Positions 9,213 to 13,666 of a stretch of DNA of 64,000 nucleotides are shown here, piece after piece. Below the pieces are notes generated by a model, which saw only the letters and a list, made by a program, of their open reading frames with translations, was not told where the DNA came from and did not search any database. A program made the translations under genes and the position numbers. The DNA comes from Candidatus Defluviicoccus seviourii (GTDB lineage Bacteria; Pseudomonadota; Alphaproteobacteria; Rhodospirillales; Defluviicoccaceae): assembly GCA_900609035.2 (NCBI GenBank), contig UXAT02000012.1, positions 77,278-141,277 on the forward strand, read 5' to 3'. Within the stretch, counting starts at the first letter, position 1. The number at the start of each line of letters is the position of its first letter.

Positions 9213-10043
9213 TCACCGAGATGGGCTTGTTTGAAGCCCGCCGCCATCCCCTTTGCGGTGTGCTGAAGGCTGCGCCGGCCCCGGAAACCATTCCGCTGAC
9301 CGGCCGGACACGCGGTAGGCAATGAGGCCAACATACTCCTTCACCGCCAAGTCGACGAGGGTGAGGTTTACGAACACGCTATAAAAATCCAGCGGTGTGC
9401 GGAAATCGACCGGGTAGGGCGCCACCTCCCAATCGAGGGCACGGAAGACACCGATTGCCCGCGGCATGTGAAAGGCCGAGGTCACCAGCAGCCACGTTTC
9501 GCCCGCTTTCGGCTGCGCGAGGCGGGCGCTGAACAGTGCATTCTCGTAAGTGGTTGCCGAGTCGCGCTCGAACAGGAACCGGTCGGCAGCAAGGCCGAGG
9601 CCTTCGAGCCAGGCGCTGACCCGATCGGCCTCGCGCACCGGCGGCAGATCCACGGCAGCAGCGCCGCCGCTGAAAATAACCCGCGCATCCGGATAACGCT
9701 GCGCGAGCGCCACCATTGTCGTCAGCCTTTCGGCGGAGTCGTTCAGCGTGACTTGGCCGCGCGCCTCGGTGATGGTGGCATCGATGCTGCCGCCGAGGAC
9801 GACGATGCCGTCGACCCGCGCCGGCAGGACGGCCGGGAAGCGCTCTTCGAGCGGTTGCATCAGCCAGGTGCCGAGCGGAAGAATGCCGGCGCTCACCAGT
9901 ACGGCCGTGGTTCCCACCAGCAGCCGGCCACCGAAGCGGCGGCGGCCCAGGGCCAAGGCGAGGAGCGCGATCGCGAGCAGTAGCACGAGGAGATTGCCAG
10001 GCCGGGCGATCAGCCAGAGGGCCTTGCCGACAATCATGAACAC
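9213..10043 (-). CDS. YdcF/ElyC-family (DUF218) membrane protein
   Basis: N-terminal TM segments, IVVLGG, IFSGG, SATTYENA, LVTSAFHMPRA, PYPVDF, KEYVG. Confidence 0.9.
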   Translation of the reverse strand: MFMIVGKALWLIARPGNLLVLLLAIALLALALGRRRFGGRLLVGTTAVLVSAGILPLGTWLMQPLEERFPAVLPARVDGIVVLGGSIDATITEARGQVTLNDSAERLTTMVALAQRYPDARVIFSGGAAAVDLPPVREADRVSAWLEGLGLAADRFLFERDSATTYENALFSARLAQPKAGETWLLVTSAFHMPRAIGVFRALDWEVAPYPVDFRTPLDFYSVFVNLTLVDLAVKEYVGLIAYRVSGRSAEWFPGPAQPSAHRKGDGGGLQTSPSR

Positions 10044-10088
10044 GCAAGACCCTCCCCTGGCACTCGCGCCGTCAGCTCAGATGGGAGT

Positions 10089-10173
10089 GCCGGCCGCTCA
10101 CGGACGGCATTGGCCGTGGCCGCGGACGATGTACTTGAAGCTGGTGAGCTGCTCGACGCCGACAGGGCCGCGC
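10089..10173 (-). repeat. Displaced copy of the proA 3' end (attR-like), 85 bp
   Basis: Matches 12350-12434 except one base (10164 a versus 12425 g, synonymous in a Pro codon); encodes [24 protein letters not shown]-stop with no upstream proA. Confidence 0.93.
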
Positions 10174-10268
10174 CATCGGTCCAGCGCTGCATCTTGTTGA
10201 ATAGTAAGCTGAAGGTATTGGTCATAAACGGGAGATCAGGCAGTCGCTTCCTTCAAAGGTTCTTTCCT

Positions 10269-11438
10269 TCATCTGCTTCCATCGCTGATCAGCGACGTTA
10301 CGACTGTATTGGGCGCCGGCTTCTTTTGGCGCGGTGTGAGATCGAACGTCACCCATTTGGCTTCGCGCGCCTCAAGGAGCAGTGTCCTTGCGTCGGCAGG
10401 GAATACGAGGGGTTGCTCAAGCATGCATCCGAACGCTTCGAACGCTCCGAATTCCTTCTTCTTCGCCGACAGCTCCCGCAGCCGCTTGCGGGCCGCATCG
10501 AGGCTTCGCTTGCGGCGGTCATGTAAGTCCGGTGTCCACCCTGGCGGCGTCTCGTCGGGGAATAGATCGCGCATCCGCGAACGTTCTTCTCGGGCGTCGA
10601 GCTTCGCGTCGACGCGGACGCTCTCTTGCGCCTCCACGGCCTTTTCCTCGACGGATCGAAATTCCTCGACACCCTTCCAATGCCGCGTTGCGTACACGAG
10701 GTAGAAATAGGTCCTTTCCACCAGCGGCTGCATGACCCTCGTTGACGTGACATACTCGAAGCTGCCCGCCGCTCGAAGGCGATTGCAGAAAACACCAAGG
10801 ATCGCGGCCTCCCGGTCCTCGCCACCCGCGATCCGTTGCTCGATTTCGCTGCGCCAGGACAAACCGCCAAAGATCGGATCGAAGGAAGCCCGGACACTCG
10901 CCTGTGGGTTCTCCAACAAATGGCGATTGATGTCGTTGTACATGAAGTTGATGATGACCTCGCCCCGCAACCGCAGCAGCGGCTGCAGAGCGTTAAGGTC
11001 TACGCTCCAGCCGGTTGGATCGACAAAGATCAGCGAGAATGCATTGTTGATGAACCGGCGCGCCTCCTTGATATGATCCTGAAACTCGCCGCAAATCGTT
11101 ATCGCTCCGGAGTTCGGAAACCGGGCAACGAGACGCCGAAGGTACTGAAAGGCGGATTGATCCCGCTCGACGAATAGGGCGCGAAAAGTTACGTCACGTC
11201 CGGCCTTCTGAAGGCCCTGCCGGACTGCCTCCAGCTTCGTCAATGCAATGAAGACAGAGGTGTCCCGGAAGTTCTCGTCGCCCGAGCGCCATGGGCCTGA
11301 GAAAGCATCGACGTACGCAAACTCCGACCAAGCGCCACCGGCCAGCGTGACGTAGGCAACCCGCTCAAGGTAGCGCTCAAGAAAGAAGTGCTTGACGAAC
11401 GTCTGTTCCCGCCCTTGGTACCACGATGGATCAAGCAT
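10269..11438 (-). CDS. tcmP: Three-Cys-motif partner protein TcmP (SAM-methyltransferase-like fold)
   Basis: KHFFLERYL, YVDAFSGPW (motif I-like), FVERD, IFVDPTGW, EVIINFMY, YFYLVYATRH; adjacent to DUF5131; GAGGA RBS before ATG 11438. Confidence 0.8.
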   Translation of the reverse strand: MLDPSWYQGREQTFVKHFFLERYLERVAYVTLAGGAWSEFAYVDAFSGPWRSGDENFRDTSVFIALTKLEAVRQGLQKAGRDVTFRALFVERDQSAFQYLRRLVARFPNSGAITICGEFQDHIKEARRFINNAFSLIFVDPTGWSVDLNALQPLLRLRGEVIINFMYNDINRHLLENPQASVRASFDPIFGGLSWRSEIEQRIAGGEDREAAILGVFCNRLRAAGSFEYVTSTRVMQPLVERTYFYLVYATRHWKGVEEFRSVEEKAVEAQESVRVDAKLDAREERSRMRDLFPDETPPGWTPDLHDRRKRSLDAARKRLRELSAKKKEFGAFEAFGCMLEQPLVFPADARTLLLEAREAKWVTFDLTPRQKKPAPNTVVTSLISDGSR

Positions 11439-11481
11439 GATTGACCAATCCTCGTCTGCGTGGCAGTATGACGACCGCCTT

Positions 11482-12252
11482 CTATTCAGCGGCGAGACCG
11501 GACATTTGCCGTAATGCTGAACTTCTGCTTGCAGCATACGGGACTTGATTCCACTCCCGCGAATCAAGCGTTCTGCCGCCCGCCTTTGGCGTGAGCCCTC
11601 CCCACTGCTTGAAGAAGAAGGGCACTCCTTCCGAACGACATTGATCGCGGATGGCGCGGACCCATTCGATGTTCATCGGCCGTGCGCGCGGCCCGCTCTC
11701 GCCGCCAACAATGACCCAGTGGATCCCGCCCAAATCCAACCGTCCGACGGGGCCAATGAGCGGTTCTAGCGACAGGAAGCGGATGGCCGCCGGGGTCCCC
11801 TGCAGGTGGGCAACACGGGACAGAAATCGGCCATTTTCGACCGACACGCCCAGCCAGATGTGCGCCGGCGCCGCCCCGCCGGCGTACCGAAGGTTCACAT
11901 ACCTTCGCATGCGCGAGCTGCGCTTGGTGAGCACCTGGTATGTGTGCCAGGCCGCTTGCTCCATCGTGTCGAAAACCAGGTCCACATACGAACACGGAAT
12001 CTTCTTGTGGAACAGATCACTCATTGAATTGACGAAGATCATTCGCGGCTGACGCCACTTTTTCGGCTGCTCAAGCCGCGCCGGTCGCAACGACAGGTCG
12101 AATCCAGTTTCGAATGGATGTCCAGCGACGCCCCTGAACCGCTCGGCAAACCGCTCAGCGTAGCAGTTGTCGCAGCCCAGGCTGACCTTCGTGCACCCCG
12201 TAACGGGGTTCCAAGTCGCGTCCGTCCACTCTATGGCGGTGCGGTCACCCAT
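11482..12252 (-). CDS. DUF5131 family protein (phage Gp37/Gp68-like; Cx6Cx2C radical-SAM-like)
   Basis: IEWTDATWNPVTGCTKVSLGCDNCYA, IFVNSMSDLFH, QVLTKR, WLGVSVEN, SLEPLIG, WVIVGGESG, FFFKQWGG. Confidence 0.92.
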   Translation of the reverse strand: MGDRTAIEWTDATWNPVTGCTKVSLGCDNCYAERFAERFRGVAGHPFETGFDLSLRPARLEQPKKWRQPRMIFVNSMSDLFHKKIPCSYVDLVFDTMEQAAWHTYQVLTKRSSRMRRYVNLRYAGGAAPAHIWLGVSVENGRFLSRVAHLQGTPAAIRFLSLEPLIGPVGRLDLGGIHWVIVGGESGPRARPMNIEWVRAIRDQCRSEGVPFFFKQWGGLTPKAGGRTLDSREWNQVPYAASRSSALRQMSGLAAE

Positions 12253-12264
12253 TCCTCCCTCCGC

Positions 12265-12290
12265 GAACGTTTACGGAACATAACAAGAAA
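12265..12290 (-). promoter_or_regulatory. Alphaproteobacterial LexA (SOS) box, exact plus an overlapping degenerate copy
   Basis: GAAC-gtttacg-GAAC at 12265-12279, continuing GAAC-ataacaa-GAAA to 12290; lies 13-38 bp upstream of the DUF5131 ATG, next to the GGAGGGAGGA RBS. Confidence 0.75.
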
Positions 12291-12358
12291 ATCAAGCCGG
12301 GTAAAGTGTTGCCGCGCAAACAGACGCAGTGTCCTGGTCAGACGTGAGCGCCGGCCGC

Positions 12359-13662
12359 TCACGGACGGCATTGGCCGTGGCCGCGGACGATGTACTTGAA
12401 GCTGGTGAGCTGCTCGACGCCGACGGGGCCGCGCGCGTGCAGCTTGCCAGTCGCAATGCCGATTTCCGCCCCCATGCCGAACTCGCCGCCGTCGGCAAAC
12501 TGGGTCGAGGCGTTGACGAGCAGGATGGCGCTGTCGATCCGGTTGACGAACGCTTCCGCCGCGGCTGCATCCTCGGTGATGATCGCTTCGGTGTGCTGTG
12601 AGGAATGGCGCTGAATGTGGGCGATCGCTTCCTCCAGGCCGTCGACGATGCGCACCGAAAGGATGGCGTCGAGATACTCCGTGTCCCAGTCGGCCTCGCT
12701 TACGGGAAGCACGCGGGCGTCGAGGGCTTGGGTTGCCGCATCGCCGCGGATCTCGCAGCCGGCATTGATCAGATCGTCCAGGATCGGCGGCAGCATCCGC
12801 GCGGCAACGGCGCGGTCGATGAGAAGCGTTTCGGTCGCCCCGCAGATGCCGGGCCGGCGCATCTTGGCGTTAAAGGTGACGCGCCGTGCCATCTCGGCAT
12901 CGGCCTTGGCGTGAATGTAGGTATGGCAGATGCCTTCCAAGTGCTTGAACAAGGGCACCCGGCTCTCCGCCGTCACCCGCTCGATCAAGGACTTGCCGCC
13001 GCGCGGGACGATGACATCGATCCATTCGGTCATCCGCAGCATGGCGCCGACGGCAGCGCGATCGGCGGTCGGCACCAGTTGGATTGCGGCTTCCGGCAAG
13101 CCCGCCGTGGCCAAGCCTTCGCTCAAGCACGCCATGATCGCGAGCGATGACTGCAGGCTTTCGGAGCCGCAGCGCAGGATCGCCGCATTGCCGGCCTTGA
13201 GGCAGAGCGCGCCCGCGTCCGCGGTGACGTTGGGGCGCGATTCATAGATGACGCCGATGACGCCCAAGGGCGTGCGCACGCGCTCAATCGCAAGGCCGTT
13301 CGGCCGCTCCCAGGCGGCGATTACCTGGCCGACCGGGTCCGGCAACAGCGCGATCTCCTCCAGGCCCTTGGCCATCGCCTCGATGCGCGCCTCGTTCAGC
13401 ACCAGCCGCTCGATCAGCGCCGCGTTCAAACCGCGCGCCCGTGCAGCCTCAACATCGCGCGCATTTGCGGCAAGGATGGCTGGCGCGTGCGTGCGGATCG
13501 AGCGCGCGGACGCGTTCAGCGCCTCGTTCTTGGCTGCCGTCGTTGCCGTCGCCAGCACGCTCGCGGCGGCACGCGCCTTGCGGCCGAGGCTTTCCATCAT
13601 GGCGGCGATATCAGCCTCCGGCTGCCCAGCCGTCGGCGCTGGTGCCAGCGCAGCCTGTCCGC

Positions 13663-13666
<4 letters not shown>
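12359..13666 (-). CDS. proA: Gamma-glutamyl phosphate reductase
   Basis: [69 protein letters not shown]. Confidence 0.98.

Follow-up and report, generated by a model that had tools for sequence, protein, structure and literature searches.

The question raised by this locus is whether a direct repeat of the alphaproteobacterial LexA type, lying in front of a horizontally acquired gene pair, is an operator that places the two genes under the SOS control of their present host, Candidatus Defluviicoccus seviourii. The pair consists of a DUF5131 gene and tcmP. It is a large gene pair that extends across many phyla and does not occur in the model organisms used to define SOS regulons; a control search of E. 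coli, B. subtilis, Caulobacter, and C. glutamicum found the DUF5131 family in none of them. A literature link of DUF5131, Gp37/Gp68, or TcmP to LexA was not found in the searchable library. The locus was analyzed in a window of 64,000 nucleotides, by which we mean the whole stretch of DNA under analysis, on contig C12 of the host genome (3.29 Mb, 64.7% G+C). Based on the sequence evidence described below, positions 12265–12290 are probably a functional LexA operator in this host. The novelty would be a standard LexA operator on an SOS target that has not been described before, as the type of operator is itself known.

The gene pair and its insertion at the proA 3' end

Both genes are encoded on the minus strand. 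The DUF5131 gene (phage Gp37/Gp68 family) occupies positions 11482–12252 and encodes a protein of 256 amino acids, which matches PF07505 with 325 bits (E 3.7e-97) against a cut-off of 28.9; its score with TIGR04471 is 74.5 bits, far under the cut-off of 355. Three cysteines, C20, C27, and C30, form a CX6CX2C motif that is invariant in a protein alignment. In the RadicalSAM.org resource, DUF5131 constitutes Megacluster-5-2, which is characterized by CX6CX2C and lies beside spore photoproduct lyase (SPL), 5-3 (PMC9477430). A structural model of the protein (pLDDT 78.8) has no match among PDB folds at E≤0.001, and the weak best matches are radical SAM enzymes, for example SuiB (TM 0.46) and SPL (TM 0.43). 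A sequence profile of DUF5131 matched nothing in the PDB, and an exact-sequence look-up of the host protein found no record. The motif and the family placement suggest that DUF5131 is an SPL-related CX6CX2C iron-sulfur/radical-SAM-type enzyme.

The second gene, tcmP (three-Cys-motif partner protein), spans positions 10269–11438 and encodes about 389 amino acids. It is recognized by TIGR04474 with 144.9 bits (E 4e-42) against a cut-off of 53. The likeliest start is the ATG at 11438, 43 nt past the DUF5131 stop; a longer reading frame from 11567 overlaps DUF5131. TcmP is far more divergent than DUF5131, and as a result tblastn with the host protein misses most of the partners, which were resolved with the NCBIfam profile instead. 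By this profile, the reading frame downstream of DUF5131 is TcmP in all ten of the other loci tested. A structural model of TcmP (pLDDT 70.5) has 119 Foldseek matches in the PDB at E≤0.001, and all 50 of the matches listed are class I SAM methyltransferases, among them Trm1 and RlmJ. The methyltransferase fold came from this fold search; the best match of a TcmP profile to PDB sequences is only RlmJ, at E 0.14. The model thus predicts a class I methyltransferase fold for TcmP. The host protein reads VDAFSGPW at residues ~44–50 (window 11290–11310, where model confidence is low), in place of VDxFxGxG in nine relatives. With a tryptophan for the last glycine of this putative SAM-binding loop, the host TcmP may not bind SAM.

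The pair is inserted at the 3' end of proA (12359–13666, minus strand), a gamma-glutamyl phosphate reductase-like gene with an Aldedh family match, and proB (AA_kinase and PUA) lies upstream of proA. A repeat search, together with alignment of the junctions to the empty sites, identifies two direct repeats of 97 nt. The right repeat (12338–12434) is made up of 76 nt from the end of the intact proA and 21 nt downstream of it, and the left repeat (10077–10173) duplicates the proA 3' end as an orphan copy between tcmP and a DUF218 gene. The two are 96% identical at a spacing of 2261, and between them lies an insert of 2.26 kb (10174–12337) that contains tcmP and DUF5131 as its only genes. Two genomes of the same genus, G091 and G291, have an empty site without DUF5131, and the joined flanks (700 nt) align end to end in them with 94% and 87% identity, respectively. 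GC3 of the cassette genes is 0.70–0.72 vs 0.78–0.86 in the neighboring genes. Horizontal acquisition, which the first-pass annotation had proposed, is borne out by the repeats, the empty sites, and the lower GC3. The high identity that the repeats still share indicates that the insertion is recent.

This arrangement is similar to that of integrative islands at gene 3' ends in its target-duplicating repeat, intact target gene, orphan copy, and empty site in relatives. It differs from them in that the insert is small and carries no integrase or other recombinase gene; a regulator gene is also lacking. No flanking direct repeats were found in the flanking DNA examined at 12 other DUF5131-tcmP loci, thus the gene pair is not generally accompanied by such a 97-nt duplication.

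The LexA-type boxes lie 50–70 nt inside the insert, away from its junctions. Because the operator is within the inserted DNA, the SOS wiring would have arrived with the cassette. The earlier proposal that the cassette was wired into the SOS response of the host thus holds for the link to the LexA motif, to which the boxes at lexA, imuA, and the orthologues point (see below), and does not hold for wiring on the host side.

Half-sites at the putative DUF5131 promoter and the LexA motif of the host

On the plus strand, the region reads cat(12250–12252)-TCCTCCCTCC-gc-GAAC(12265–12268)-gtttacg-GAAC(12276–12279)-ataacaa-GAAA(12287–12290)-atcaag. In the direction of the genes, the DUF5131 leader is CTTGATT-TTC-TTGTTAT-GTTC-CGTAAAC-GTTC-GCGGAGGGAGGA-ATG. 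Two registers of a direct repeat overlap here on the minus strand and have the central GTTC (12276–12279) in common. The exact GTTC-N7-GTTC register, GTTCCGTAAACGTTC, occupies 12265–12279, and the upstream register, TTTCTTGTTATGTTC, occupies 12276–12290 and has one core mismatch (G1->T). Written as extended half-sites, 12265–12290 is TtTTC-N6-TGTTC-N6-cGTTC, that is, a perfect central half-site with a 4/5 half-site on each side, at a spacing of one helical turn. The site as a whole is 13–38 nt 5' of the DUF5131 ATG, with TTGATT just upstream. The first-pass annotation had placed GAAC-N7-GAAC at 12265–12279 and its extension, GAAC-N7-GAAA, up to 12290, together with TTGATT and a ribosome binding site (RBS), and all of these placements are correct.

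Several promoter elements can be read from the sequence around the half-sites. A putative −35 hexamer, TTGATT (12290–12295, minus strand; AATCAA on the plus strand), overlaps the first base of the upstream register, and the RBS, GGAGGGAGGA (12254–12263, minus strand), is directly 5' of the ATG at 12252. A weak −10 candidate, TAAACG or AAACGT, would lie on the minus strand in the spacer of the exact box. A consensus scan of 9950–12450 found no sigma-70 promoter, an Rfam scan of 9900–12500 at E≤1 matched no family, and the fold of the leader RNA is unremarkable (z −1.3). In the orthologues L011, L013, L014, L017, L019, and L036, TTGAYA-type hexamers are found 0–4 nt 5' of the box, and in other orthologues a TATAAT-like hexamer abuts the box on its 5' side. 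These hexamers suggest that the box is located at the transcription start or in the interval that separates −35 from −10. At the host locus as well, we infer that promoter elements coincide with the DUF5131 box.

The GTTC-N7-GTTC direct repeat is the published LexA operator of Alphaproteobacteria (PMC8565304, PMC9578287). Its occurrence in Rhodobacter, Rhizobium, and Caulobacter is attributed to da Rocha et al. 2008, as cited in PMC9578287. The host has a single, intact LexA in which the Ala-Gly cleavage site is present, as are the Ser and Lys residues. Its own lexA promoter carries the box GAACCAAACTAGAAC and a second, one-mismatch box, GTTTTTCTTTTGTTC, and in the imuA-imuB operon GAACATATCATGAAC lies across the imuA start codon. 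The host genome also contains a permuted tmRNA with the tag ANDNEAYALAA; permuted tmRNA is typical of Alphaproteobacteria. An alphaproteobacterial host with an intact LexA and the same motif at lexA and imuA agrees with the first identification of the repeat as a LexA operator of the alphaproteobacterial type.

Two other SOS loci were considered as reference sites and dropped, and lexA and imuA were used instead. No GTTC-N7-GTTC was recognizable upstream of recA (C6:1–400, a region that ends at the contig end, ~350 nt), and none in the divergent region of uvrA/ssb (C53:109353–109515). The lack of a box at both loci suggests that the LexA regulon of this host is atypical, and that it may be unusually small.

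The bare pattern is not significant beyond chance in the window. Four exact GTTC-N7-GTTC matches are found where 1.6 are expected, and 10 of 100 shuffles reach four; genome-wide there are 100 exact matches, of which 69 are inside gene calls (crude calling). The other matches in the window (29278, 52164, 55544) are within called genes and have G+C-rich spacers, in line with the earlier remark that the other intergenic regions hold no comparable box. The significance of the box comes from its position and conservation, not from the bare pattern.

[quoted passage not shown] A second PWM was built from 24 orthologous boxes, and the cassette locus was left out of both. With the own-genome PWM, the upstream register at 12276–12290 scores 22.1 bits, which is rank 4 genome-wide and the best match outside the training sites. 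The exact box scores 10.2 bits and is below the 11-bit threshold, which 536 genome sites pass.

Two more high-scoring LexA-type boxes of the host genome, at C25:11769 and C3:88346, are in apparent mobile or defence contexts. As assigned by eye, one of them is flanked by SNF2/PLD-like helicase and RAMP-like genes, and the other, GAACCAGACTAGAAC, is near-identical to the lexA box and adjoins a phage terminase-small-subunit-like gene. A further exact box, GTTCTTTGTATGTTC followed by ttGTTC, is found at C23:145386, where it lies 319 nt 5' of mraZ in ~830 nt of intergenic DNA. This box could mark an unannotated small SOS gene, for example a division inhibitor.

Choice of register and conservation among orthologues

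The 24 orthologous boxes define a motif that is longer than the two cores. Their spacer has the consensus [T/C]-T-G-T-T-[T/A]-T, with T at position 7 in 23 and at position 5 in 22 of them, and a T precedes each GTTC, so that the half-site is effectively TGTTC. With the PWM of these boxes, the upstream register scores 21.6 bits vs 7.7 bits for the exact register. The spacer of the latter, CGTAAAC, is off-consensus (spacer score −7.9 bits) and fails at most of the constrained positions. The upstream register thus combines a perfect spacer with one core mismatch, and the exact register combines perfect cores with a poor spacer. MAFFT aligns the upstream register with the conserved TGTTCtTGTTtTGTTC of the orthologues. 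The same register is identical at 14 of 15 positions to GTTCttgttatGTTC, the LexA box of Caulobacter ccna_01391 and ccna_02355, and the T-rich spacers of the two are identical.

The first-pass annotation had put the emphasis on the exact box. Its match to the repeat is indeed exact, but by both PWMs it is the extension at 12276–12290 that is more like other LexA boxes. This register is probably the primary operator, homologous to the boxes of the orthologues, and all three half-sites probably belong to a single operator in which two registers overlap. It counts against a functional operator that neither register fully matches the extended motif, given the G->T change in the first half-site of the upstream register and the poor spacer of the exact one.

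It is possible, though unlikely, that the exact box at 12265–12279 is the sole operator and that the GAAA extension is irrelevant. Neither of its GTTC cores has a mismatch, and the published consensus consists of the cores and the 7-nt spacing (PMC8565304, PMC9578287). It also starts at −27, which is the modal position of the orthologous boxes (they start at −24 to −34 from the start codon) and is seen, for example, in L005; the upstream register starts at −38. Against this reading stand the spacer, with its failure at most of the constrained positions, and the own-genome score under the threshold. An operator made up of both registers is therefore preferred, with 12276–12290 as its probable primary register.

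Conservation was examined upstream of orthologous genes. DUF5131 is patchy in the order of the host (76 of 301 genomes) and in its genus (2 of 13 other genomes). Among 20 same-order orthologues that share at least 59% protein identity, 16 have an exact GTTC-N7-GTTC, in all cases at −24 to −34, compared with an expectation of 0.0036 per 125-nt window (binomial p 5e-36). A same-order DUF5131 subfamily of at most 54% identity has the exact box in none of nine members. In a separate scan of named alphaproteobacterial loci, the exact box is present in 7 of 18. Enrichment of the box upstream of orthologous cassettes, a check proposed in the first-pass annotation, is thus strongly positive, as about 0.004 boxes are expected per locus in either set. 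Alphaproteobacterial copies in which the exact box is absent include those of Sphingobium, Sphingomonas, and plasmids of Acetobacter pasteurianus and Sulfitobacter pontiacus. Outside the Alphaproteobacteria, the exact alpha-type box is found in 2 of 62 loci, one of them a 'Gemmatimonas' MAG.

In an alignment of 30 upstream regions, the block TGTTCtTGTTtTGTTC and the gene start are the only conserved elements; the flanking non-coding DNA is unalignable across orthologues, and the box is retained. The loci with a box group together on the protein tree, in a single well-supported and mostly alphaproteobacterial clade of 46 rows, and the state of the box changes 10 times vs 23.5 times with shuffled labels. 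Since the box-bearing loci cluster in one clade, much of the conservation reflects descent within the cassette lineage.

Copies in other lineages carry other LexA motifs. Lineage-matched motifs, with identities taken from PMC8565304 and PMC9578287, were searched for within 60 nt of the start, where 0.001–0.002 are expected per window. A Steroidobacteraceae (gammaproteobacterial) copy, which falls inside the alphaproteobacterial clade of the protein tree, has CTGT-N8-ACAG (TACTGTATACAAGTACAGT). GAAC-N4-GTTC is found in two actinobacterial copies, both from Solirubrobacteraceae (CGAACATATGTTCG), and in one Dehalococcoidia copy (AGAACGTATGTTCT). Unless there is selection for LexA control, it is hard to explain why the operators should follow the lineage of the host rather than that of the cassette.

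A few individual loci were also noted in these scans. The Gemmatimonas sp. MAG (L046) has a perfect alpha-type box, GTTCCTGTTTTGTTC, 28 nt before the DUF5131 start; a recent alphaproteobacterial transfer, a mis-binned contig, and a similar LexA motif in that phylum are alternative explanations. A Planctomycetia MAG (L065) has a palindrome, TGTACATAGGTACA, 32 nt before the DUF5131 start, at the position of the LexA boxes of other lineages, which makes it a candidate planctomycete LexA site. On the Sulfitobacter pontiacus plasmid NZ_CP139705.1 (L124), DUF5131-tcmP lies after ssb and before a DUF932 gene, adjoins an H-NS gene, and is without an alpha-type box.

The site in the host may also be viewed as a decaying relic, functional in the donor, in which the first half-site was mutated from GTTC to TTTC and SOS control is now weak or absent; expression would then depend mainly on proBA read-through or on a leaky promoter. 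The core mismatch is in the register that aligns with the orthologues, and the box has been lost in the related copies L004, L007, L033, L035, and L037. A scan of 9950–12450 found no terminator-like site after proA, that is, between proA and the cassette; proA is encoded upstream in the same direction, so that transcripts from proBA may run into the cassette, which could give LexA-independent expression. The tryptophan of the host TcmP at the second glycine of the FxGxG loop, which is glycine in the nine relatives, hints at relaxed constraint. However, the upstream register outscores some of the high-scoring sites of the same genome, lexA as a bona fide SOS promoter also has a one-mismatch box, and a register with exact cores is restored by a third half-site, an exact GTTC that lies one helical turn downstream. 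Neither gene is disrupted, and the insertion is a recent one. On balance, the relic is improbable, more so than the exact box as sole operator. Least of all do we expect a chance match, or a repeat that serves a cassette-specific regulator or a mobile-element recombinase: the bare pattern is common in genome and window alike and the mobile element has no integrase of its own, but the same motif is at the host lexA and imuA, the distance to the start is fixed in 16 of 20 orthologues, other hosts have the LexA motifs of their own lineages, and the repeat is located well inside an insert without a regulator gene and not at its junctions.

Proposed SOS control and possible roles of the gene pair

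In the mechanism that we propose, the LexA operator (12265–12290, minus strand) would overlie the core promoter of the DUF5131-tcmP operon. In an undamaged cell, a LexA dimer would occupy one of the two overlapping registers, either 12276–12290, between the putative −35 and −10, or 12265–12279, which would cover the transcription start and the putative −10. LexA bound in either register would block RNA polymerase. Upon DNA damage, RecA-stimulated self-cleavage of LexA would free the promoter, and both genes would be expressed within the SOS response. The operator would have come inside the integrase-free insert at the proA 3' end and, as Alphaproteobacteria have the LexA motif in common, would be functional in this host. 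LexA binding, the position of the transcription start, and induction by damage at DUF5131-tcmP are what we infer from sequence.

The operator resembles the known alphaproteobacterial LexA box in its direct-repeat cores, in the 7-nt spacing, and in its location near the core promoter and start codon, as at the host lexA and imuA. It differs in having three in-phase half-sites and hence two registers, in both of which one extended half-site is imperfect; in Caulobacter, a single box is found at about 97% of the SOS promoters. If the mechanism is correct, the three half-sites would provide two alternative LexA registers, one covering the −35/−10 spacer and the other the −10. It would also mean that a small cassette without an integrase can carry ready-made SOS control between alphaproteobacteria.

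DUF5131-tcmP is not among the described SOS genes. SOS-regulated radical SAM genes are known in several phyla, namely SplB (COG1533) and the UDG-COG4277 pair (PMC8565304). DUF5131 would be similar to these in that an iron-sulfur/radical-SAM-type enzyme has a LexA operator in several phyla, with operators specific to each lineage. It differs from SplB in its family (PF07505/COG4422), in its motif (CX6CX2C vs CX3CX2C), and in that it is always paired with the methyltransferase-fold TcmP.

The pair is also similar to the candidate defence systems PDC-M41 and PDC-M30 of PADLOC, as both components are matched in adjacent genes and the pair is mobile and patchy. DUF5131 matches PDC-M41B and PDC-M30B with E 6.5e-102 and 8.7e-100, and the match of TcmP to the A component is weak (E 4e-11 to 5e-06). 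SOS control, however, points to DNA repair or modification at least as much as to candidate defence of the PADLOC type. A conserved LexA operator that is matched to the host tells when the genes are made, which narrows their function to the processing of DNA damage or to damage-triggered defence. Most likely, the products of DUF5131 and tcmP would act on DNA after damage.

A wider reading, which we put forward tentatively and hold to be somewhat less likely than its opposite, is that DUF5131-TcmP is a portable SOS-induced DNA-processing module that crosses phyla, with an operator re-tuned to the LexA of each host. It would combine an SPL-related radical-SAM-type enzyme with a methyltransferase-fold partner for handling of the nucleic-acid substrate. 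If this is true, the gene pair would represent a widespread, unrecognized branch of the DNA damage response, with a role either in the direct repair or modification of damaged DNA or in a damage-triggered anti-phage function.

The order of the two genes is not the same in all loci. A tcmP-like gene is upstream of DUF5131 in L061, L068, L073, L074, L080, L084, L090, L098, and L104. This tcmP-first order is seen in many loci of Acidobacteriota, Verrucomicrobiota, and Omnitrophota, where the relevant promoter is the one in front of tcmP.
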